Source: an uncultured Gemmataceae bacterium (GTDB lineage: Bacteria > Planctomycetota > Planctomycetia > Gemmatales > Gemmataceae). From it: 64,000 bases of DNA. The notes under the pieces are model-generated. The model was not told where the DNA came from. It searched no databases and saw only the letters and a list, made by a program, of their open reading frames with translations. How positions within the stretch are numbered: the stretch's first letter is position 1; every line of letters begins with the position of its first letter. Below, in pieces: positions 41,742-54,146 of the stretch. A program made the position numbers and the translations under genes. The DNA lies in NCBI GenBank assembly GCA_963750165.1, contig CAVVPN010000012.1:800001-864000 (forward strand), read 5' to 3'.

Positions 41742-41820
41742 AGGAGGCGCCGAACAACAACTTCCAAGAGTAGGACGGCTCTGGAGAGCCGTCCTACGAA
41801 GTTGTTGTTCGGCGCCTCCT
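41742..41820. repeat. Composite hairpin at the 3' end of pilT (possible terminator)
   Basis: 23-bp perfect IR AGGAGGCGCCGAACAACAACTTC / GAAGTTGTTGTTCGGCGCCTCCT enclosing GTAGGACGGCTCTGGAGAGCCGTCCTAC. Confidence 0.8.
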
Positions 41821-42917
41821 TAGCGATTGAGCAAACTAACATCACGGACATTTTGTTCGGCGATCGCGCGGCTGATCTTGTTCGCCCGCCACAGCTGCCG
41901 CACCGATTCGTCAAAACTCAACATACCATCATCACGGCAGGTCAGGAGGTAGTTGTCAATGCTCTCGATCTTGCCGGTGCGGATGGCACTGGCAATGGGA
42001 AACGTGTTCCATAACACTTCCAGCGCCAGGTGCCGCTTGACCCCCTTTTCGACACCGGGGAGCAGCCGCTGGCTCACGATCGCGCGCAAACCCAGGGCCA
42101 GGAGTGCCCGCACCTCGCGCTGCGCGTCCTGCGGAAACAAATCGGCGTAGCGGCTGATGGCGCCCTTGGCGTCCCGGGTGTGCAGGCTGGTAAACACCAG
42201 ATGTCCCGTTTCCGCGGCACTGAGCGCCATCTGGGCCGTCTCCTGATCGCGGATTTCGCCCACCAGGATGATGTCCGGGTCTTGCCGCAAACCGTACTTG
42301 AGGCCGTCGGCGAAGGTCAGGACATCCGGCCCCACTTCGCGCTGCGTCACCACCGAGTTCGCCGCCCGCGGAAAGCGGTATTCCACCGGTTCCTCAACCG
42401 TGATGATGCGGTAGCCCCCGGTCTTGTTCAACAGGTTGACGAGCATCGCCAGGGTAGTGGTCTTCCCGGAACCGGTGGCGCCGGTCACGATCACCAGCCC
42501 GTCGCGCACGGAAGTCAGCCGCTGGGCCAGGTCCAACGGGAAGCTCGCCCAGGCAAAATCCGGGATGCTGGCGGGCACCACCCGCACACAGGCGCCCAGT
42601 TGCCGGCCGGTGTGGAAGACATTGGCGCGGAAGCGGCTGATGCGGCCGTTGATCACCAGGCCAAACGAAAAATCGACGTTCTTCTGGGCCTGGAGGCGAG
42701 CAAACACTTCGGGCAAACACAGGGCCGCAAGTAACTCGTGCGTCTCTTCCGCGGACAGGGGTGGCTCGGACAGTTCGGTCAGTTCGCCGTGCAAGCGCAG
42801 CACTGGTGGGTAGCCAACGATGACGTGCAGGTCCGAGGCCCCGGTTTGCACCGCACGGCTCAGCCATTTGCGAAGCTGGTCCGGAATCGGCGCCGCTTCT
42901 TGTTTCCTGTCGGTCAT
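41820..42917 (-). CDS. pilT: PilT/PilU-family type IV pilus retraction ATPase
   Basis: ASDLH; GATGSGKTTT; TVEEPVEY; QREVG; LRQDPDIILVGEIRD; AETGHLV; IASAIRTG. Confidence 0.9.
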   Translation of the reverse strand: MTDRKQEAAPIPDQLRKWLSRAVQTGASDLHVIVGYPPVLRLHGELTELSEPPLSAEETHELLAALCLPEVFARLQAQKNVDFSFGLVINGRISRFRANVFHTGRQLGACVRVVPASIPDFAWASFPLDLAQRLTSVRDGLVIVTGATGSGKTTTLAMLVNLLNKTGGYRIITVEEPVEYRFPRAANSVVTQREVGPDVLTFADGLKYGLRQDPDIILVGEIRDQETAQMALSAAETGHLVFTSLHTRDAKGAISRYADLFPQDAQREVRALLALGLRAIVSQRLLPGVEKGVKRHLALEVLWNTFPIASAIRTGKIESIDNYLLTCRDDGMLSFDESVRQLWRANKISRAIAEQNVRDVSLLNR

Positions 42918-43573: not shown

Positions 43574-44737
43574 GTGCGGATCGCATTGTTTTCATGGGAA
43601 ACCTTGCATTCCATCGCTGTGGGTGGCGTGGGGGTTCACGTCACCGAGATGGCTGCCGCCCTCGAACGCCGCGGCCATGAGGTTCACGTCTTCACCCGGC
43701 GCGGCCACAATCAGCCGGGTTACGAAAACGTCCACGACGTCCACTACCACCGCTGCCCCTTCGACCTGACGCCGAACTTCGTGGACGAAGTCAACAACAT
43801 GTGCCGGTCGTTCGTCCACCACTTCAACGCTGTTGAGGATCAGGTCGGCCGTTTCGACATCGTTCATGCACACGACTGGTTAGCGTCGAATGCCGCGGTC
43901 TGGATCAAGGAGGGCCGCCGGCACAAGGCCATCCTCACCATGCACTCGACGGAATACGGCCGCAACGGCAACCGCTTCCTCGGCGGCCAGTCCGTCCGCG
44001 TGCAGGACCACGAACGCCACGGCACCTATTGCGCGGACCGCGTCATCACGGTTTCCAACCAGCTCAAGGAGGAGATCAAGTGGCTCTACAACCTGCCTGA
44101 CCACAAGGCCCAGATGATCTACAACGGCGTGAATTCCCAGGTCTTCGACTATGAGGTCGATGCTGGCGAGATCAAGCGCCGCTACGCCATTGGCCCGTTC
44201 GATCCCACGATTCTGTTCGTCGGCCGCATGGTGGTGCAAAAGGGCCCGGACATCCTCGTCCGCACCATGCCGTCGGTGCTGCGGTACTACCCCAACGCCA
44301 AGTTCGTCTTCGCCGGCGACGGCTACATGAAGAACGAGGTCTGCGGCCTGGCCCATCACCTGGGCGTCGCGCATGCCCTGCGGATGCTGGGCGACAAGCG
44401 CGGCCGCGACCTGCACGACCTGTTCAAGGCCTGCGACGTCGTGTCGGTGCCGAGCCGGAATGAACCGTTTGGGATCGTCATCCTGGAGGGGTGGAGCGCC
44501 CACAAACCGGTGGTCAGCACCAAGCGGGGCGGCCCGGCCGAGTTCGTCTGGCATGGCGTGAACGGCTTGCAAGTGGACGACACGGTCGATTCGGTGGCCT
44601 GGGGTTTGGGCACCCTGCTGGCCGACCACAACCGCTGTCGCTGGATGGGCCGCAACGGCCGAGCGGCCGTCGATGCCGCGTTCAGCTGGGACAACATCGC
44701 CGAGCAAACCGAAGCAGTCTACGCCAGTGTGGCCTGA
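43574..44737 (+). CDS. GT4 (GT-B retaining) glycosyltransferase with intact catalytic motifs
   Basis: GGVGVHV; HAHDW; HSTEYGR; GRMVVQKG; PSRNEPFGIVILE (E-x7-E); AAGGAG RBS with GTG start. Confidence 0.9.
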   Translation: MRIALFSWETLHSIAVGGVGVHVTEMAAALERRGHEVHVFTRRGHNQPGYENVHDVHYHRCPFDLTPNFVDEVNNMCRSFVHHFNAVEDQVGRFDIVHAHDWLASNAAVWIKEGRRHKAILTMHSTEYGRNGNRFLGGQSVRVQDHERHGTYCADRVITVSNQLKEEIKWLYNLPDHKAQMIYNGVNSQVFDYEVDAGEIKRRYAIGPFDPTILFVGRMVVQKGPDILVRTMPSVLRYYPNAKFVFAGDGYMKNEVCGLAHHLGVAHALRMLGDKRGRDLHDLFKACDVVSVPSRNEPFGIVILEGWSAHKPVVSTKRGGPAEFVWHGVNGLQVDDTVDSVAWGLGTLLADHNRCRWMGRNGRAAVDAAFSWDNIAEQTEAVYASVA

Positions 44738-44757
44738 GTCATCATTGAGGATGCACC

Positions 44758-46578
44758 ATGACGATGTTCACCAACGGATTTGTTGGCTTCCCGGATGTCG
44801 AATCCATCTTGCGGCTGGCCGAGGGGGCAGCGGCCCCCGGCAAAAATGGCCACGAACCGACTGCCCGGCTTCCCCTCAGTGCTGAGTTGCTGCGCAGTTT
44901 TGCCTGGGAAATTGGCGAAACGCGGCCGGGCGATTCCTTTGTTCCGTCCGTCAATCATGTGGGTCTGGCACTGGTCGCCCCCCTTCACGGCTTCGTCCAC
45001 TGGCGCATCCTGCCCGCCTGGGTGGACCAGACCGAGCGACACAGGGGCGACGCCTGGCACAACTGTCGTCTGGTGCTGCGCCTGTACGACGTGTCCTACA
45101 TCCAGTTCAACGGTCTGAATGCCCATCACATTCAGGACCACGCGCTGCCGGGCCTGTGCGGGAGCTTCTTTTTCAAGCTGCCACGCCCTGGCACCTGGCA
45201 ACTGGCGGAGGTCGGTTTCCTGCTGCGCGGCGGCGAGTTCATTGCGGCGGCCCGCTCGCAGTCCACGCCGTTTCCGCCGGACGCTCCCTCGCCCCGTTGC
45301 AGCAACGCCGGCCTGCTGGTGGACGAGTGCCGCCACATCACGGAAGTCGGCAACGTCTGGGAACAGGAGCAAATCCTGGCCGCACGCCGCCGGCCCCGGT
45401 TGCGCCGGCCCTTGCGCATCGCGGCGTTCGCCCTGGCCTCGCCAGCTTCGGGCCAGGAGGGTTGGCTGGCCACCTTCGTTTCCGAGCTGGCCGCCGGTCA
45501 GTGCGCCCAGGGCCACGAAACCCACGTCTTTGTACCGGCCTGCGACGCATTAAACGCCTCGCGCGAGGTGGCGGGCGTTCACTACCATCCGCTGGCGGTG
45601 AGCCTGGAGGGCTCGCCGCTGGAGCAGGCGCGAACGTTCGCTCAGGTTGCAGGCCAGCGCCTGCGCGAATTTCCGCCATTTGACATCATTCATCTACACG
45701 AGTGGATGACCGCCCTGGGTCGCTGGTACGGCGATGCGGCGGCGGTTCTTTCGCTCAGTTCCATCGAGGCGACGCGGCGCGGCGACGAGGCGCCGACGGA
45801 TCAGTCGCGCGTGATCGAGGAAGCCGAGGGCGCAGCGGCCCGCGCTGCTGATTGCGTCCTGACACCGGACTGGCTCCGCAAGCGCGCATGCTTTGAACTG
45901 AGCCTTGACAGCACCCGTGTCCACGCCTTTCCGATGGAAGGGCGGATGCCCAACGAATGGGAAACGCCGCTCGATTACGGTGAGGTCAAGAAGGGCATCG
46001 GCCTCGGTCCGCTCGACCGGCTGCTGCTGTTCGTCGGGCCGCTGGAACACGCGGCCGGTGTGGATGTGCTCCTGGAGGCGCTGCCCGTCCTGCTGCAGCG
46101 CGCCGGCAATGTGCGCCTGGCTTTCGCGGGCGCGGGCAACCTGTACGGCCACCTGCATCACCGCGCCCACCAACTCGGCGTGGCCGGCGCGGTGCGCATC
46201 CTGGGCCACGTGGACGGTCCCCGAGTGACGCGGCTGGTTCGGGCCGCGGAAGCCCTGGTGTTGCCGTCGCGCTACCGGGTGCCCTTTGACGACGCGGTGG
46301 TGGACCTGGCACGGCGCGCGGGGCGGCCCGTGGTGACGACCCACGGCGGCCCGGTCCATCTCGTGCGCCACGAGGACAACGGGCTCATCACCTACGACAA
46401 CCCGGGCAGCATGGTCTGGGCCCTCGACCGGATCCTGGGCGACCCCGCGCACGCCGAGCGCATGGGCCAGCACGGCCGGCGCACCGAACAAGCTTCCGTG
46501 GTGTGGCCTGAGGTCGCAAGCCATTATCTGGATCTTTGTGCGACGCTTTTTCCTAAACTGATTGAAACGCTTTGCTGA
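44758..46578 (+). CDS. DUF4912-like domain fused to a degenerate GT4 domain
   Basis: FVHWRI…LVLRLYDVSYIQFNG…AEVGF…FIAAARS; then HLHEW and a GT-B fold lacking R/K and E-x7-E. Confidence 0.8.
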   Translation: MTMFTNGFVGFPDVESILRLAEGAAAPGKNGHEPTARLPLSAELLRSFAWEIGETRPGDSFVPSVNHVGLALVAPLHGFVHWRILPAWVDQTERHRGDAWHNCRLVLRLYDVSYIQFNGLNAHHIQDHALPGLCGSFFFKLPRPGTWQLAEVGFLLRGGEFIAAARSQSTPFPPDAPSPRCSNAGLLVDECRHITEVGNVWEQEQILAARRRPRLRRPLRIAAFALASPASGQEGWLATFVSELAAGQCAQGHETHVFVPACDALNASREVAGVHYHPLAVSLEGSPLEQARTFAQVAGQRLREFPPFDIIHLHEWMTALGRWYGDAAAVLSLSSIEATRRGDEAPTDQSRVIEEAEGAAARAADCVLTPDWLRKRACFELSLDSTRVHAFPMEGRMPNEWETPLDYGEVKKGIGLGPLDRLLLFVGPLEHAAGVDVLLEALPVLLQRAGNVRLAFAGAGNLYGHLHHRAHQLGVAGAVRILGHVDGPRVTRLVRAAEALVLPSRYRVPFDDAVVDLARRAGRPVVTTHGGPVHLVRHEDNGLITYDNPGSMVWALDRILGDPAHAERMGQHGRRTEQASVVWPEVASHYLDLCATLFPKLIETLC

Positions 46579-46629
46579 ACGGTGCGTGCAGCAGGAAAAC
46601 CGAACGGACATTTGTCCAGGAGCATTGAC

Positions 46630-47910
46630 ATGTTGCAGGCCAACCAGAATGGCACGGGTGTGGTGAGCGAACTCGACGCCACGGCGACGGAAGGCCGAAC
46701 GGCGGTTCTGATTCGCTCGGAGGTGCCACCGCGGCCTATCCAGGAAGATCAGCAGGAGCGCCCGGAGACGCGCCCGGCCCTCGCCGTCTTCTGTTACGAG
46801 GATCCCGAAAGCGTGGTCGGTCGTTTTGTGACCCGGCTGGCCAGTGCGCTCACAAGACGCGACATCGCCGTTCACGTGTTCTCACGCCGGGACTTCGCCC
46901 TGGATGCCCTCGGTGTCGCCAGCCACGCGCTCGGCGGTGATGAAGGCGACGACCTGGTCAGCCCGGTGCAAGAGTTCGCTGGCCGCGCGTGCAATGCCTT
47001 CCTCAAACTGTTCCCCGGCGGCTGCGGCAATGTCACGCTGATGGGTCTGGAGTGGTCTGCCATCCCGGTGCTGGCGTTGCTTCAGGGGCTAAAAAACCTC
47101 AACGTCATCCTGTCGCTGCACTCCCTGGAGCGCCAGCGCAGCGATCTGACCAGCGACGTGAGTCAGCAAATCGAAGCGATCGAACAGGCCGGGTTGCGCG
47201 CGGCGAAGGCCATCCTGGTTCACGACCCGGTGACTGCCGCGGTCGCGCAGGCTGCCGTCCCGGAGTGCGCCGAGCGCCTGACCCCGGTGCGCGACATCTT
47301 CCCCGCGCACCTCTTCGAGACCCCGCTCGATCCCGGAGAGGTCAAGGCGCGTTACCAGATCGGTCCCATCGACCCCACGATTGTGTTCCTCGGCGACCTG
47401 AGCGAGCGGTACGGCCCCGACCTGCTTGTGAAGGCAATGCCGGGAATCCTCAAGAACCATCCGCAGGCACGGCTCGTCGTGGCCGGCGCGGGCGATCTCT
47501 ACTGGCCGTTGCGTGTCTACAGCCGTTACCTGCTGCTGGAGCACGCGGTTCGCCTGCCCGGCAGCGTGGAGGGGCAGGCCGCTTGCGAATTGCTGCAGGC
47601 CGCGGATGTTGTTGTCGTTCCCAGCCGCGAGTCAACGTCGTGGTGGCCGATCCAGGCCGCGTGGGCCGCCCGCCGTCCCGTGGTCGCCACGCACCCGCTG
47701 GCTCCGGGGCTCCTGGAACACGAAGGCGACGCGGTGCTGTGCTACCCGAGCGAGAACAGCCTCGTGTGGGGCGTTGAGCGCGTGCTGTTCGACGCCGAGC
47801 TGCGCCAGCGCCTCGGCGAGAAAGGCAGCCTGAAGCTGAACGACCAGTTCGGCTGGGGCCAGGTGGCCGCGCAGGTGGAAGCACTGATGAGCGCTGCAGT
47901 AATGCGCTAG
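46630..47910 (+). CDS. Degenerate GT4-like protein
   Basis: Paralog of 43574 (DPGEVKARYQIGPIDPTI, GPDLLV) but GDLSERYG and PSRESTSWWPIQA replace the catalytic motifs. Confidence 0.8.
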   Translation: MLQANQNGTGVVSELDATATEGRTAVLIRSEVPPRPIQEDQQERPETRPALAVFCYEDPESVVGRFVTRLASALTRRDIAVHVFSRRDFALDALGVASHALGGDEGDDLVSPVQEFAGRACNAFLKLFPGGCGNVTLMGLEWSAIPVLALLQGLKNLNVILSLHSLERQRSDLTSDVSQQIEAIEQAGLRAAKAILVHDPVTAAVAQAAVPECAERLTPVRDIFPAHLFETPLDPGEVKARYQIGPIDPTIVFLGDLSERYGPDLLVKAMPGILKNHPQARLVVAGAGDLYWPLRVYSRYLLLEHAVRLPGSVEGQAACELLQAADVVVVPSRESTSWWPIQAAWAARRPVVATHPLAPGLLEHEGDAVLCYPSENSLVWGVERVLFDAELRQRLGEKGSLKLNDQFGWGQVAAQVEALMSAAVMR

Positions 47911-47935
47911 GGCTTTTGGTTCACGAACGCCCCTC

Positions 47936-48124
47936 GTTGTGGCCTGGTCTCCTGACCAGGCCCCCTGTTGTGGCATGGTCTCCTGACCAGGCCCCCTGTT
48001 GTGGCATGGTCTCCTGACCAGGCCACTCCGCCGACCGAAGGTCTCCAGCAATCGCCCTGGTCCAGGGAGTGCGGGGAGACCTTCGGTCGAGCCCGGTGGC
48101 CTGGTCAGGAGACCATGCCACAAC
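47936..48124. repeat. MITE/REP-like element: three tandem 31-bp units plus an inverted arm
   Basis: GTTGTGGCMTGGTCTCCTGACCAGGCC at 47936, 47967 and 47998; inverted copy 48096-48124; inner IR 48032-48046 / 48075-48089. Confidence 0.85.
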
Positions 48125-48193
48125 GGGAGGGAGATGAGCGCTGCAGTGACGCTCTAGGGCTTTCTACCTGCCTCGTAGTTACGGAGAGCATTC

Positions 48194-49798
48194 ATGCCGA
48201 AAGGTTACCTGTTCCTGGTCCTGCACGCGCACCTGCCCTACGTCCGGCATCCGGAGTTCGACCGCTTCCTGGAGGAACGCTGGTTCTTCGAGGCCGTCAC
48301 CGAGACGTACATTCCGCTCATCAAGTTCTTCGACCGACTTCGGGACGAGCGCGTGCCGTTCAAGGTGACGCTGTCGATCTCGCCGACGCTGGCGAACATG
48401 ATGGAAGATCCCTTGCTGCGCGCGCGCTGCGTGCGGCACCTGGATCTGTCGATCGGACTCGCCGAGAAGGAATGCGACCGCACGCAGCACTGGCGCGATG
48501 TCAATTCGCTGTCCTGGATGTACAAGCGCCTGTTCGAGGAGGCGCGGCACACGTTTGTCGAGCGCTGTGGCACGCGGCTGATCTCGGCCTTCAAGGAATA
48601 CGCCGACTCGGGCAACCTCGAGCTAATCACCTGCGCCGGTACGCACGGCTACCTGCCGCTGCTCAGTTCGGAGCCGGTCGCGGTGCGCGCCCAGGTGTTG
48701 ACGGCCGTCCAGGAACACCAGCGCATCTTTGGGCAACAACCGAAGGGCATGTGGGTGCCCGAATGCGCGTTCTATCCGGGGCTGGACAACGTGCTCGCCG
48801 AGGCGGGCATTCGCTACTTTTTTGTCGATTCGCACGCCATTGACCATGCGGACCCGCGACCGCTGTTCGGCGTCGCCGCCCCGCTCTACTGTCCTTCCGG
48901 CGTGGCCGCCTTCGGCCGGCATCCGCTCACCTCCAAGCTCGTCTGGAGCAAGAGCGTCGGCTACCCGGCGGATTACAACTACCGCGAATACTATCGCGAC
49001 ATCGGCTTCGATCTCGACCAGCACTATCTGGAGCCGTTCCAGTACGCGCACGGCATTCGCACGCACACGGGCATCAAGTACCATCGCATCACCGGGCTGC
49101 CCGGCGACAAGCACCTGTACCATCCCGATTGGGCACGCGAGACTGCCGAGCGCCACGCCCACGATTTCGTTCGCCGTTGCCGCGCGCAGGCGAGCCGTGC
49201 CAGCAGCGACATGCCGTTCCCGTCCGTCGTGGTGTCGCCCTACGACGCCGAACTCTTTGGTCACTGGTGGTTTGAAGGTCCGCAATGGATCTATTACGTG
49301 CTGCGCGAGCTGGGCGGGGGTGGGGAACTGGAGGCGGGCACGCCCGGTGAATACCTCCGCGCGTTCCCCATTCAGCAGCAAGCGCTGCCGGCCGCCAGCA
49401 GCTGGGGCAAGAACGGCTACAGCGAGCACTGGATCAACGACAAGACCGAGTGGATGTGGCGTCCGCTGCACGAAGCCACGGCGCGGATGCGACAGGCCGT
49501 GGAGAGCCGCCCCGAGGTGTCGGCGGATAGCCTGGAGGACCGGGCGCTGCGTCAGGCCGGGCGGGAGTTGATGCTGGCCCAGGCGTCCGACTGGCCGTTC
49601 ATCATCAGTAACGGCACCACTGAGGAGTATGCCCGGCGCCGTTTCCACGACCATCTGCACCGTTTCCACGACCTGCTCAACGGCCTGGACAACCAGCACA
49701 TCGAGACCAGACGCCTGGAGGCCCTGGAATACATGGACGCCCTGTTCCCGGAACTGGACTATCGTCTGTTCGCGCCGGCGGGCGCGGCCGGTCCCTGA
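48194..49798 (+). CDS. GH57 1,4-alpha-glucan branching enzyme (DUF1957 type)
   Basis: LHAHLPYVRH; EAVTETYIPL; GMWVPECA; PYDAELFGHWWFEG; ELMLAQASDWPFI. Confidence 0.92.
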   Translation: MPKGYLFLVLHAHLPYVRHPEFDRFLEERWFFEAVTETYIPLIKFFDRLRDERVPFKVTLSISPTLANMMEDPLLRARCVRHLDLSIGLAEKECDRTQHWRDVNSLSWMYKRLFEEARHTFVERCGTRLISAFKEYADSGNLELITCAGTHGYLPLLSSEPVAVRAQVLTAVQEHQRIFGQQPKGMWVPECAFYPGLDNVLAEAGIRYFFVDSHAIDHADPRPLFGVAAPLYCPSGVAAFGRHPLTSKLVWSKSVGYPADYNYREYYRDIGFDLDQHYLEPFQYAHGIRTHTGIKYHRITGLPGDKHLYHPDWARETAERHAHDFVRRCRAQASRASSDMPFPSVVVSPYDAELFGHWWFEGPQWIYYVLRELGGGGELEAGTPGEYLRAFPIQQQALPAASSWGKNGYSEHWINDKTEWMWRPLHEATARMRQAVESRPEVSADSLEDRALRQAGRELMLAQASDWPFIISNGTTEEYARRRFHDHLHRFHDLLNGLDNQHIETRRLEALEYMDALFPELDYRLFAPAGAAGP

Positions 49799-49840
49799 AG
49801 CATCGAACCCGGCGCTCAACTCGAACGGGAGGCACTGGCG

Positions 49841-50050
49841 ATGTTGTGTTGGTTTTGCGAGCAAGAAGCGCGGGGCAGCTGCGCCGCTTGTGGCCGGGGC
49901 CTGTGCCACAAACACGCCAACATCCACGATGAGTTGACGCTGGTCAAGTCCGATACCAGCACGGGATACGCGACGTACCTCAATGTTTACGGAGCGCTCA
50001 AGTGTGTCGAGTGTCGGCTCGAGTGGAAATCATTTACCCCGCAAGCATGA
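49841..50050 (+). CDS. Small Cys/His-rich zinc-finger-like protein
   Basis: CWFC…CAACGRGLCHKH…CVEC; GGGAGG RBS. Confidence 0.7.
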   Translation: MLCWFCEQEARGSCAACGRGLCHKHANIHDELTLVKSDTSTGYATYLNVYGALKCVECRLEWKSFTPQA

Positions 50051-50148
50051 GAGGCCAATAACCCTGCGAATCCGCACTGCGAAGCCAGGGCCATCGTTTG
50101 TCCTTGCTTCGCGTTGCGGTCGCGCGGTTTTTTTCGGAGAAATACTGC

Positions 50149-51600
50149 ATGAACATGTCTTCCTTGCCCGAAATTATTGATGGCCTGCCGAACATCAGTG
50201 GCGCTGAGGCTCAGGTTGAGGAAATCACCCGCCGGCAACAACCCGTCTATTTGCCGGACACGAACCTGCAACTGGGCCGTCTCCAGGCGGTCTTCGCCAT
50301 CGCGTTGCACATGCACCAGCCGCTCATCCCCGCGGGGGGCGGCGATTTGCGGTCGGCGGACGTTATCAGCAATCTCGACCACATGATGCGCTCCGGTGAC
50401 GAGTACAACGCTTCGGTTTTTGCCGACTGCTACGGCCGGATGGGCGACATCATTCCCGAACTGGTCCGCGCCGGCCGGAATCCGCGCGTGATGCTCGATT
50501 ACTCCGGCGAGCTGTTCTACGGACTGCGCAAGATGGGTCGCGGCGATGTGCTCGAACGGTTGCGCGCCATCACCTGCGATCAGCACCTGCGGCGGTATGT
50601 CGAATGGCTTGGGACCATGTGGGGGCACGCCGTCGCCTCGTCCACACCGTTGCCGGACCTGAAACTGCACATGCGGGCCTGGCAGCAGAACTTTGCCGCC
50701 GTCTACGGCTGGGAGGCGCTGAGTCGAGTACGCGGCTTCTCACCGCCGGAAATGCACATGCCCAACCACCCGGACGCCGCTTTCGAATACGTCAAAGCGC
50801 TGAAGGAGTGCGGCTACCGCTGGCTGCTGGTACAGGAACACACGGTCGAAACCCTGGAGGGACGCGGACTGGGCTACAAACATGTGCCGCATCGGCTCAT
50901 CGCTCGCAATTCCTGCGGCGAGGAAGTGAACATCGTCGCCATCATCAAGACGCAGGGATCGGACACCAAGCTGGTGGCACAAATGCAGCCTTTCTATGAG
51001 GCACAGGGTTTGCAACGTCGAGAGGTCGGCGGCATCAGCATTCCGCCCCTGGTGACGCAGATCGGCGATGGCGAGAACGGCGGTGTGATGATGAACGAGT
51101 TCCCCTCCGGTTACCGCCAGGCGATTGGCCGCTTCGGTACGGAGGGGGTCGTCAACGTGAACGTGACGGAATACCTGGAGATGATCGAGCAAGCCGGTAT
51201 CCGTGAGCCCATGCTGCCGGGCTGCCGGCCGATCAACCAGGGCCAGGTGTTTGCACGCATCAGCAAGTGGGAGCCGGGCGCCGCGGACAAAGCCATTGCC
51301 AGCATCAAGCGCGAGCACTCGAACTTCTCAATGGACGGCGGTTCCTGGACGAACAACATCAGCTGGGTGGCCGGCTACGACAACATTCTGACACCGATGA
51401 ACAAGCTCAGCGCCCACTTTCATCAGATTCTGGACTCGCGCCCCGTGGACCGAAACAGCCGGGCCTATCGCAATGCCCTCTTTTACCTGTTGATGGCGGA
51501 GACGAGTTGCTTCCGCTACTGGGGGCAGGGAGTGTGGACGGACTACGGTCAGGAACTCTGCCGTCGTGGGGCGGAGATTCTGGCGCATGATTTTCACTGA
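50149..51600 (+). CDS. GH57-family glycoside hydrolase (second type)
   Basis: ALHMHQP; LDYSG; WLGTMWGH; GFSPPEM; IGDGENGG; ETSCFRYWG. Confidence 0.8.
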   Translation: MNMSSLPEIIDGLPNISGAEAQVEEITRRQQPVYLPDTNLQLGRLQAVFAIALHMHQPLIPAGGGDLRSADVISNLDHMMRSGDEYNASVFADCYGRMGDIIPELVRAGRNPRVMLDYSGELFYGLRKMGRGDVLERLRAITCDQHLRRYVEWLGTMWGHAVASSTPLPDLKLHMRAWQQNFAAVYGWEALSRVRGFSPPEMHMPNHPDAAFEYVKALKECGYRWLLVQEHTVETLEGRGLGYKHVPHRLIARNSCGEEVNIVAIIKTQGSDTKLVAQMQPFYEAQGLQRREVGGISIPPLVTQIGDGENGGVMMNEFPSGYRQAIGRFGTEGVVNVNVTEYLEMIEQAGIREPMLPGCRPINQGQVFARISKWEPGAADKAIASIKREHSNFSMDGGSWTNNISWVAGYDNILTPMNKLSAHFHQILDSRPVDRNSRAYRNALFYLLMAETSCFRYWGQGVWTDYGQELCRRGAEILAHDFH

Positions 51601-51673
51601 CCCAATTTGATCGGAGCCATCGATGATCCTGCGTGGGGCGCCGAATGTGGAGCAAACGAGGTCTCAGTTAACG

Positions 51674-53791
51674 ATGAGTGCCAGGAATGTCGTCCCGCGA
51701 ACCACGTTCACGACCGCGCGTGGCCATTGCCTGCCCTTCGGCGCCACCCCGCGGCCCGGCGGCGTCAACTTCGCCGTGTTTTCCCGGCATGCGCAGCGCG
51801 TCCATCTGGTATTGTTCAAGGAAGGACAGGAAGAACCGATCATCGAGATCCCGCTGGATGCAACCCACAACCGCACGGGTGATGTCTGGCACATCTTCGT
51901 CCATGACGTGACCCCGGATTTGCTGTACGGTTATCGCATCGCGGGGCCGTCTGTGCCGCGGGCCGGCCACCGCTTCGATCACAACGCCATCGTGTTGGAC
52001 CCTTACGCTCGGGCGATCAGCGGCGGCCAGCGCTGGGGTTTCCCCGACATTCCCCACATCCTCACGCTGCCCTCTGCCAATGGGGTCGGGGAAAACGGCA
52101 AGGTGAAGGGAAACGGCAGTCGTCTGTCGCGGCGCGGGCGCCTGGTCATCGATGAGTTCGACTGGGAAGATGATGTACCCCCGGCCACGCCGCTGGGGCA
52201 GACTGTTCTGTATGAGTTACATGTACGCGGCTACACCCGGCACCCATCGTCCGGCGTCGCGCATCCGGGCACGTTCCTGGGTCTTTGTGAGAAGATCCCG
52301 CACTTGAAGGCGCTCGGGATCACTGCCGTTCAATTCATGCCGGTTCTTGAATTTGACGAACTGGACCTGGAACGTAAGAACCCGCTCACTGGCGAAATGC
52401 TCAAAAACTACTGGGGCTACTCGCCGCTCTCGTTCTTTGCTCCAAAAGCGTCCTATGCCGCGCAGCCGGGCCAGCAGGTGCGCGAGTTCAAGGAGATGGT
52501 CAAGGCCTTCCACCGCGCCGGCATCGAGGTCATCCTCGACGTGGTGTACAATCACACGTGCGAGGGAAACGAGAAGGGGCCCATCATCAATTTCCGGGGC
52601 CTTGACAACGCGATCTACTACATGCTCGACGGCGAGGGGCGCTACTACAACTTCTCCGGCTGCGGTAACACGCTGAACTGCAACCATCCCGTGGTTCGCG
52701 ATCTCATCATCGACAGCCTATCTTACCTGGTCTCCGAGTTGCACGTCGATGGTTTTCGGTTTGATCTGGCAACGATCCTCGGCCGCGGTCCCAACGGCAA
52801 GGTGCTGGAAGACCCGCCGCTGATTCAGCATATCGCCGAACATCCCGTGCTGGCAGGCACCAAATTGATCGCCGAGGCCTGGGACGCCGCCGGCGTTTCG
52901 CAACTCGGCAAATTCCCCGCGTGGGGCCGCTGGGCGGAGTTGAATGGTTGGTTCCGTGACGATGTGCGCCATTTCCTGCGCAGCGACCCTGGGGCCGCGG
53001 CGGCAGTCGCCAAACGCATCTGCGGCAGCCTGGACCTGTACGGCGATTCCTCACGCCATCCGTATCATTCCGTCAACTTCATCACCAGCCATGACGGCTT
53101 CACCCTGTACGACCTCGTTAGTTATAACGACAAACACAACATCGCCAACGGCGAAAACAACCGCGACGGCTGGAGCGAAAGCATCAGCTATAACTGTGGC
53201 CACGAAGGCCCAACAGAAGTTCCCGCCATCGTCGCCCTTCGGCAGCGGCAGATGAAGAACTTCCTCACGATGCTGTTCATCTCCCAGGGTGTGCCGTTCC
53301 TCGCCCAGGGAGATGAGTTCGGCCGCACGCAGAAGGGCAATAACAACGCCTACTGCCAGGACAACGACATCTCCTGGGTGGACTGGAGTCTGGCGCAAAA
53401 GAACGCCGGACTGCTGCGCTTCACGCGGATGATGATTGCCTTGCGGAAGCGCCATTTCGCCCTGAGTCGAGAGCAGTTCATCAACCGCGTCACCTGGCAT
53501 GGCACGCAACCCGGCGATCCGGACTGGTCCGGGCAGAGCCGCACGCTGGCGTTCCATCTCCGTGGCTGGCACCGGCAGCCGCACTTCTATGTCCTTTTCA
53601 ACGCTCACTGGGAGTGGCGTAAGTTCGTGCTGCCCCCGCACGACGGCCAATGGCGCTGGCAACGCCTGGTAGACACGAATCTGCCTGAGTCGGAGGACAT
53701 CGTCGAGGACAAAGACGCGGTTCTGCTGCGCCCCGCGGACCACTACGTCACAGCGCCGCGCTCCGCCGTCATTCTGATCGCTCATAGTTGA
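51674..53791 (+). CDS. glgX: Glycogen debranching enzyme / isoamylase (GH13)
   Basis: GVNFAVFS; YELHVRG; NYWGYSP; DVVYNHT; DGFRFDLA; IAEAWD; NFITSHDGFTL; GNNNAYCQDN (alternative start 51623). Confidence 0.95.
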   Translation: MSARNVVPRTTFTTARGHCLPFGATPRPGGVNFAVFSRHAQRVHLVLFKEGQEEPIIEIPLDATHNRTGDVWHIFVHDVTPDLLYGYRIAGPSVPRAGHRFDHNAIVLDPYARAISGGQRWGFPDIPHILTLPSANGVGENGKVKGNGSRLSRRGRLVIDEFDWEDDVPPATPLGQTVLYELHVRGYTRHPSSGVAHPGTFLGLCEKIPHLKALGITAVQFMPVLEFDELDLERKNPLTGEMLKNYWGYSPLSFFAPKASYAAQPGQQVREFKEMVKAFHRAGIEVILDVVYNHTCEGNEKGPIINFRGLDNAIYYMLDGEGRYYNFSGCGNTLNCNHPVVRDLIIDSLSYLVSELHVDGFRFDLATILGRGPNGKVLEDPPLIQHIAEHPVLAGTKLIAEAWDAAGVSQLGKFPAWGRWAELNGWFRDDVRHFLRSDPGAAAAVAKRICGSLDLYGDSSRHPYHSVNFITSHDGFTLYDLVSYNDKHNIANGENNRDGWSESISYNCGHEGPTEVPAIVALRQRQMKNFLTMLFISQGVPFLAQGDEFGRTQKGNNNAYCQDNDISWVDWSLAQKNAGLLRFTRMMIALRKRHFALSREQFINRVTWHGTQPGDPDWSGQSRTLAFHLRGWHRQPHFYVLFNAHWEWRKFVLPPHDGQWRWQRLVDTNLPESEDIVEDKDAVLLRPADHYVTAPRSAVILIAHS

Positions 53792-53876
53792 TCAGATGAT
53801 GGGTCGTTCCGTCTTCACTCGCCGCCGCCAATCTTCGTGTTGACATGGCTATTACCCCGGCCAGCAATAAGCTCAA

Positions 53877-54067
53877 GTAGGACGGCTCTCCAGAGCCGTC
53901 TTTTGCAGGGGCATGGCGTATCGCTTGCCCGGTCATTGGTTGGCCTTACTCGGCTACACCCCCTTCTCCAGGAATTAGAGCAGTTCCCAGTCGCGTGAAC
54001 CACCAACCGTGGCACGGCTCTCCCGAGCCGTGATGGCAACCGCACGGCTCGGGAGAGCCGTGCCACG
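53877..54067. repeat. REP-like palindromes
   Basis: GTAGGACGGCTCTCCAGAGCCGTC (53877-53900, same family as 41770) and hairpin CGTGGCACGGCTCTCCCGAGCCGTG / CACGGCTCGGGAGAGCCGTGCCACG (54008-54067). Confidence 0.8.
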
Positions 54068-54146
54068 CCTTGTGCGCCTGCCCTGCGTGAACCGCTCCAG
54101 AGCAGTTTGCCGTCGCAAGAACCACGAACCGCAGGCCAGCGCTGCC

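Follow-up and report, generated by a model that had tools for sequence, protein, structure and literature searches.

An intact GT4 glycosyltransferase and two conserved, catalytically degenerate paralogs in an alpha-glucan gene cluster of a Gemmataceae bacterium

What does a GT4 glycosyltransferase do next to two paralogs that have lost its donor-binding residues, in a cluster that also encodes enzymes of alpha-glucan branching and debranching? The question is raised by a 64,000-nucleotide stretch of DNA from an uncultured Gemmataceae bacterium (assembly GCA_963750165.1, contig CAVVPN010000012.1, positions 800,001 to 864,000; hereafter the window). Seven open reading frames (ORFs), named here g1 to g7, span 43574..53791 of the window and are all on the + strand, as an earlier reading made from the letters alone (the sequence-only reading) had stated. 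Pfam and NCBIfam profiles identify g1, g2 and g3 as GT4 proteins, with a DUF4912 domain at residues 66-180 of g2, and g4 as GH57 plus BE_C; g7 scores above the GlgX cut-off. The alpha-glucan context proposed earlier is supported by this gene content and by related loci. On the reading that we favour, and to which we give about an even chance, the cluster is an accessory module that builds and remodels alpha-glucan beside glgA or glgE routes, in which g1 would elongate chains and g2 and g3 would be non-catalytic, glucan-binding partner subunits.

The three GT4 proteins are mutual best matches within the genome and share 28-36% pairwise identity. The available part of the GlgM structure paper describes eight donor-contacting residues common to GlgM and GlgA (PMC7137382). 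We mapped these residues onto g1-g3 through a profile alignment to the GlgM structure. All eight are present in g1 (H124, V160, N184, R218, K223, E297, G300 and I301), none in g2, and only the His in g3, where it occurs in 80% of orthologs. The GG loop, Asn184, Arg218, Lys223 and both Glu are lost from g2 and g3 alike. The motifs quoted in the sequence-only reading are exact, and its statement that only the first GT4 keeps the donor R/K and E-x7-E holds. Thus g1 combines the features of an active retaining GT4, namely GT-B domains, donor His, Asn, Arg, Lys and Glu, and E-x7-E; g2 and g3 do not have this set. Both nevertheless retain W102, which we take to be an acceptor subsite position as in GlgA, as well as S125/E127/R130 and E147, and positions D196, K201, P208 and W343, specific to the subfamily, are common to all three proteins. 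The donor pocket is refilled with conserved Arg/Asp in g2 (R297/D300/D301/D305) and with Asp/Trp in g3 (D218/W300/W301), several of these positions being 88-100% conserved. A structure predicted for g2 only shows the GT-B fold, with DUF4912 as an FN3/Ig-like domain; structure comparison of the latter retrieved FN3/Ig-like sandwiches at scores no better than background (best Z 8.2; rmsd 3.5 across 93 residues) and no specific match to a carbohydrate-binding module.

A scan of GTDB genomes with g2 returned 33 loci, 31 of them in Planctomycetota groups by record title, one in Polyangiaceae and one in Verrucomicrobiota. The genes g1, g2 and g3 are consecutive in 29 of these 33; two of the exceptions lie at contig ends and the other two (L040, L044) hold only g2 and a branching enzyme. 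Further along, g4 is found in 30 loci, GlgX in 21, g6 in 16 (plus one fragment) and a g5-type zinc finger in 2. When rows covering less than 80% of the query are set aside (3 for g1, 6 for g2 and 5 for g3, frameshifted or at contig edges), Arg is kept in 26/27 g1 orthologs and Lys and E-x7-E in 27/27, and the R/K/E-x7-E set is kept in 0/28 g2 and 0/26 g3 orthologs. Median NG86 omega over 23 loci is 0.13 for g1, 0.28 for g2 and 0.35 for g3, values that can only be coarse given the divergence of the sequences (median pS of about 0.62; 64, 32 and 31 saturated pairs of 253 were dropped for g1, g2 and g3, respectively). Omega stays below 1 in all usable g2 and g3 pairs, with maxima of 0.49 and 0.63, and a single close pair gives 0.01, 0.18 and 0.13 for g1, g2 and g3. 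These purifying values indicate that selection preserves g2 and g3 as proteins and that they are not copies in decay. The triplet is rare, being found in 2/251 genomes of the class sample, which limits its reach; g3 matches occur in 5/61 relatives and g1-like genes in 19/301 genomes of the phylum sample, both counts including the source genome. In one Polyangiaceae-titled genome (G382), which alone of the 201 genomes sampled from its phylum gave a match, an intact g1, a partly degenerate paralog and g2 lie at three unlinked places (L066, L070, L040).

Sequence comparison places g1 in a GT4 subfamily that is uncharacterised, is associated with alpha-glucan genes in bacteria and also has archaeal members. 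Its best PDB profile match is GlgM (6tvp, E 7.5e-43), with which it has the eight donor residues in common, but g1 is far under the GlgM family cut-off (TIGR02149, 155.9 against 302.4) and GlgE was not found in the source genome, which is 93% complete. Assignment to GlgA (GT5) was rejected as well (TIGR02095, 76.5 against 328.45), the true glgA lying elsewhere in the genome. In trees, g1 falls in a clade separate from a sister clade to which it is about 30% identical. The sister clade, which presumably holds Rv3032, contains fusions to GH57 branching enzymes and to DUF4912 and has a SWE[YF]PP motif. Subfamily members also occur in Aenigmarchaeota, Methanosarcinaceae, a glaucophyte and a giant virus, the Yasminevirus protein (P0192) being an intact one.

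A metagenome scan returned 80 loci, 36 of them of g1 type, and the 19 with an intact g1 and at least 8 kb of sequence were assessed. Fifteen of the 19 have a GH57, branching-enzyme, GlgB, GH133, GlgX or DUF4912 neighbour. GH133 adjoins g1 at L048 and GH57 plus GH13 at L078, and g1 lies beside GH57 plus GH13 in 3/201 genomes of a verrucomicrobial sample. A tandem ORF after g1 in verrucomicrobial loci had been taken for a pseudo-GT by its size, but proved to be GH57. In two planctomycetes, two tandem genes resembling alpha-glucan-water dikinase directly follow an intact g1 (L055:2443-9505 in G135; L057:2087-9150 in G188). Glucan phosphorylation genes of the dikinase kind are best known from starch metabolism. 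In four loci (L096, L105, L115, L118) the order is g1, a stand-alone DUF4912 gene and a branching enzyme, with no pseudo-GT; this order points to an origin of g2 in the fusion of a duplicated GT4 with a neighbouring DUF4912 gene.

Degenerate copies are frequent in the g1 clade. Representatives were taken at 50% identity, 101 of 143 new ones being long enough to score, and a protein was called degenerate when it lacked at least two of R/K/E/E. By this count 18/51 representatives of the g1 clade are degenerate versus 0/42 of the sister clade, a tally in which clustering at 50% identity over-counts faster-evolving proteins. A second, unlinked degenerate group, with Glu changed to Asp and the second Glu lost, is found in family f41 (L052, L054, L056, L058, L061, L063); these genomes also hold an intact g1, with two copies in 6/7 of those with a match. 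Independent origins of the pseudo-GTs could not be established: the groups are separate in free trees, but the approximately unbiased test, applied to two degenerate groups, did not reject a single clade (p 0.518). When degenerate proteins served as seeds for a metagenome scan, most of what was recovered was intact g1 or triplets already known.

The search for longer relatives of g1 yielded 38 proteins, mostly eukaryotic fusions of a CBM48/GH13 branching enzyme and a GT4. The fusion GT4s of Toxoplasma, Neospora, Eimeria, Vitrella and dinoflagellates are 42-52% identical to g1 over 99% of its length, and the complete myzozoan ones keep R, K and both Glu. The myzozoan inserts have motifs in common with the g1 clade and nest within it in trees. 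A further protein (P0122) joins a g1-type GT4 to a g6-type GH57. According to the available part of a 2026 preprint, a GT4 insertion is present in BE2 of all starch-making Myzozoa, starchless Chromera mutants fall across the BE2/GT4 fusion, and Chromera needs the fusion for starch, the role of its GT4 being left unexplained (10.64898/2026.09.25.754361). From architecture and taxa we infer that the GT4 of this BE2 is the same domain as in the relatives of g1; the supplementary GT4 tree of the preprint may already include bacterial members. The Toxoplasma SBE2 was left unstudied in PMC9241709, as far as the available text goes. The myzozoan fusions (Toxoplasma SBE2-type, chromerid and dinoflagellate) thus couple a GT4 of the same subfamily to a branching enzyme, as the cluster does. 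They differ in that a GH13 branching enzyme contains the GT4, with no clustering with GH57. Moreover, it is the branching half that is described as inactive, in the portion of the preprint at hand (10.64898/2026.09.25.754361), and the GT4 that is intact, the reverse of g2 and g3.

Other systems resemble parts of the cluster. Rv3032/Rv3031 and Rhodococcus GlgAb pair a GT4 alpha-1,4-glucosyltransferase with a branching enzyme, as seen here. The first pair is described as serving methylglucose lipopolysaccharide (MGLP) synthesis in the accessible part of PMC2674218, and the Rv3032-like RjoGlgAb, in that of 10.1101/2023.02.13.525685, is encoded beside a branching enzyme, lengthens short-branched glucans and assembles into large oligomers. 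In contrast, the clade that we assume to be theirs has no degenerate copies (0/42), and the cluster is devoid of MGLP methyl- or acyltransferase genes. In streptococcal adhesin glycosylation, the active GT-B protein GtfA is encoded with inactive GT-B paralogs, GtfB and Asp1, which lack the basic residues and Glu. Both are reported as having acidic clefts that bind substrate, in what is available of 10.1101/219105. That system serves protein O-GlcNAcylation, not glucan metabolism, and its complex is proven, whereas a complex of g1 with g2 and g3 is a proposal. Finally, a Methanoculleus bourgensis GT4 lies among glgB and GH57 genes, a similar neighbourhood, compared here by its description only; the available text of the review mentions no pseudo-GTs, speculates that this GT4 is an uncharacterised glycogen synthase and states that GT4 genes in glycogen clusters need clarification (PMC11046441).

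No glgA, glgC, glgB or glgE is present in the window, as noted previously; profile matches fall elsewhere in the genome. The source genome (G000) has glgA, two glgC above the cut-off and a third below it, and a GH13 glgB; neither GlgE nor GT3 was found in this 93%-complete assembly. Among the triplet genomes tested, which account for 24 of the 29 loci, 17 have glgA (16 above the cut-off) and the other 7 all have GlgE; the 4 GlgE genomes examined for it carry their own TreS-maltokinase. Two 91%-complete genomes (G225 and G072) contain g1 and a GH57 branching enzyme, and no GT5, GT3, GlgE or GlgC was found in them; their g1 loci have no pseudo-GT. A TreS/maltokinase-type match of the source genome, split in two frames beside a partial GlgB-like GH13 (G000:C3:3260161-3264667), is possibly a decayed or frameshifted GlgE-route cluster.

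In the mechanism that we propose, g1 would transfer glucose from a nucleotide sugar to short alpha-1,4-glucan chains, g4 would branch the elongated chains, and g6 and GlgX would trim them. By analogy with the systems above, g2 and g3 probably join g1 in a complex, where they would bind glucan without catalysing a reaction, and the DUF4912 domain of g2 probably links the synthase to the branching enzyme. A glucan role of g1 is backed by its neighbours in separate lineages, by the fusions and by the GlgM match with its complete donor set. It also fits G225 and G072, where g1 and a GH57 branching enzyme occur and no other synthase was found. For g2 and g3, omega below 1, the retained W102 and other residues, the adjacency of DUF4912 and branching enzymes (at L040 and L044 even with g1 elsewhere) and the GtfB/Asp1 precedent all favour the proposed role as partner subunits; RjoGlgAb is a further precedent for this reading.

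Several observations weigh against this reading. We found no g1-subfamily member with measured activity in the literature searched. A glucan neighbour is missing from four of the 19 long intact-g1 loci and from several further g1 loci of planctomycetes. Among the 15 with glucan context, 11 have no pseudo-GT and only 4 do; since g1 mostly occurs without neighbouring pseudo-GTs, these are not obligatory subunits. The proposal of non-catalytic paralogs stands as regards conserved pseudo-GTs under selection, and falls as regards a requirement for the family, 11 of the 19 long loci having glucan or DUF4912 neighbours and no pseudo-GT. Nor is the stoichiometry fixed, because G383, a draft genome, has a g2-like gene and no g1 ortholog was found in it (best other match 1.8e-42), and G237 has g1 and g3 with no g2 within the locus. 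The preprint, in its available part, proposes a regulatory role for the myzozoan GT4, since 20% starch is still made by a truncation without it (10.64898/2026.09.25.754361). The roughness of the omega estimates is to be added to these points.

A wider proposal, which we put forward only tentatively, is that g1 stands for a so far unrecognised type of enzyme, which makes or initiates alpha-glucan in planctomycetes, archaea and starch-making protists and is controlled through assembly with its own pseudoenzyme copies, and that the operon corresponds, in unfused bacterial form, to the myzozoan BE2/GT4 fusion. If so, the operon would give a soluble route to the reaction of the myzozoan GT4 domain. 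A small, unfused bacterial member of the subfamily with natural, catalytically stripped paralogs makes substrate, product and regulation directly testable. We could not find a description of the cluster in the literature searched on DUF4912, GH57/GT4/glycogen, Planctomycetota GH57 and pseudoenzymes, a coverage outside which subscription journals lie, nor, in the same literature, pseudo-glycosyltransferase partners in bacterial storage-glucan metabolism. What is new is the link of the g1 subfamily to bacterial alpha-glucan genes and to the myzozoan branching-enzyme fusion; the parts have known analogues.

Among the alternatives, the strongest, still rather unlikely in our view, is that g2 and g3 bind glucan or sense metabolites on their own, acting on the granule or the branching enzyme without joining g1 in an assembly. 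It would account for g2 remaining beside a GH57 branching enzyme where g1 is unlinked or not found (L040, L044) and for a pocket refilled with strongly conserved residues, and it agrees with the substrate sensing that the preprint, as far as available, proposes for the myzozoan GT4 (10.64898/2026.09.25.754361). However, the order g1-g2-g3 is fixed in 29/33 loci, subfamily-specific positions are common to the three proteins, and degenerate paralogs reside mostly in genomes with an intact g1 (6/7 f41 genomes with a match; G382). Less probable again is a small g1 product, such as maltose-1-phosphate as with GlgM, a short primer or an MGLP-like oligoglucoside, in place of storage glucan. GlgM is indeed the best profile match (6tvp; TIGR02149), Rv3032/Rv3031 offer a precedent in the part of PMC2674218 available, and all 7 triplet genomes without glgA have GlgE. 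Against this stand the low TIGR02149 score, the failure to find GlgE in the 93%-complete source genome, the separate TreS-maltokinase of the 4 GlgE genomes, the lack of any methyl- or acyltransferase gene among the seven cluster genes in Pfam/NCBIfam searches, and neighbours that include GlgX, GH133 and dikinase-like genes. That g2 and g3 are active enzymes of another chemistry, for instance transglycosylation or use of another donor through their replacement residues, is improbable: these residues are highly conserved and the fold appears intact in the g2 model, but neither protein has the two basic pyrophosphate ligands, the GG loop or the Asn any longer, and acidic or aromatic residues line their cleft, a similarity to inactive GtfB/Asp1. 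The weakest alternative, the earlier framing in which the cluster replaces the canonical glycogen pathway, is contradicted by glgA, glgC and glgB in the source genome and by glgA or glgE in 24/24 triplet genomes, and has very little left to it beyond G225 and G072, where g1 may be the only candidate synthase and no pseudo-GT accompanies it.

Features of the cluster, with positions in the window (aa, amino acids)
Feature	Position	Strand	Description
g1	43574..44737	+	intact GT4 (GT-B) glycosyltransferase of 387 aa; the subfamily described here is founded on it
g2	44758..46578	+	DUF4912 (predicted FN3/Ig-like beta-sandwich) fused to pseudo-GT4, 606 aa
g3	46630..47910	+	pseudo-GT4, ~426 aa; ATG at 46630 with AGGAG site; ORF open from 46582
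Palindromic genome-wide repeat element, g3/g4 gap	47917..48132	.	flanked by 31-nt direct repeat; outside conserved module
g4	48194..49798	+	GH57 branching-enzyme-type protein (GH57 + BE_C); catalytic-type Glu/Asp motifs present
g5	49841..50050	+	69-aa Cys-rich zinc-finger-like protein; DUF2180-like lead
g6	50149..51600	+	second GH57-family protein, specificity not assigned; P0122 is a fusion with g1-type GT4
g7	51623..53791	+	glycogen debranching enzyme GlgX; the genome has several paralogs

The Glu and Asp motifs of g4 are kept in 23/23 orthologs, and the protein scores under the equivalog cut-offs of two NCBIfam models. A second GH57 branching-enzyme gene, 48% identical to g4, is located elsewhere in the genome (G000:C3:3173240-3174811), as is a second, stand-alone DUF4912 gene (C3:2425466-2425828). 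g6 has no Pfam match of its own and no PDB match by sequence search; its GH57 assignment is indirect, through L078 and through P0122, to whose GH57 (PF03065) half it is 56% identical. Its GH57-like motifs, which we presume to be of catalytic type, are kept in 16-17 of 17 orthologs. A promoter scan of the cluster found none.

The g3/g4 repeat has 216 bases and, with its flanks, covers 47886-48163, the 31-nt direct repeat sharing bases with the end of g3. Sequences related to the element are found in 64 bins (500 bases each) of the genome, and another repeat family, with matches in 69 bins, follows glgX at about 53870-54080. On the other side, a PilT-type ATPase gene (41820-42917, - strand) is divergent from the cluster and is not beside it in the 33 related loci. 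A g5-type zinc finger follows g1 in seven further loci of other lineages (L077-L079, L110, L112, L114, L119).

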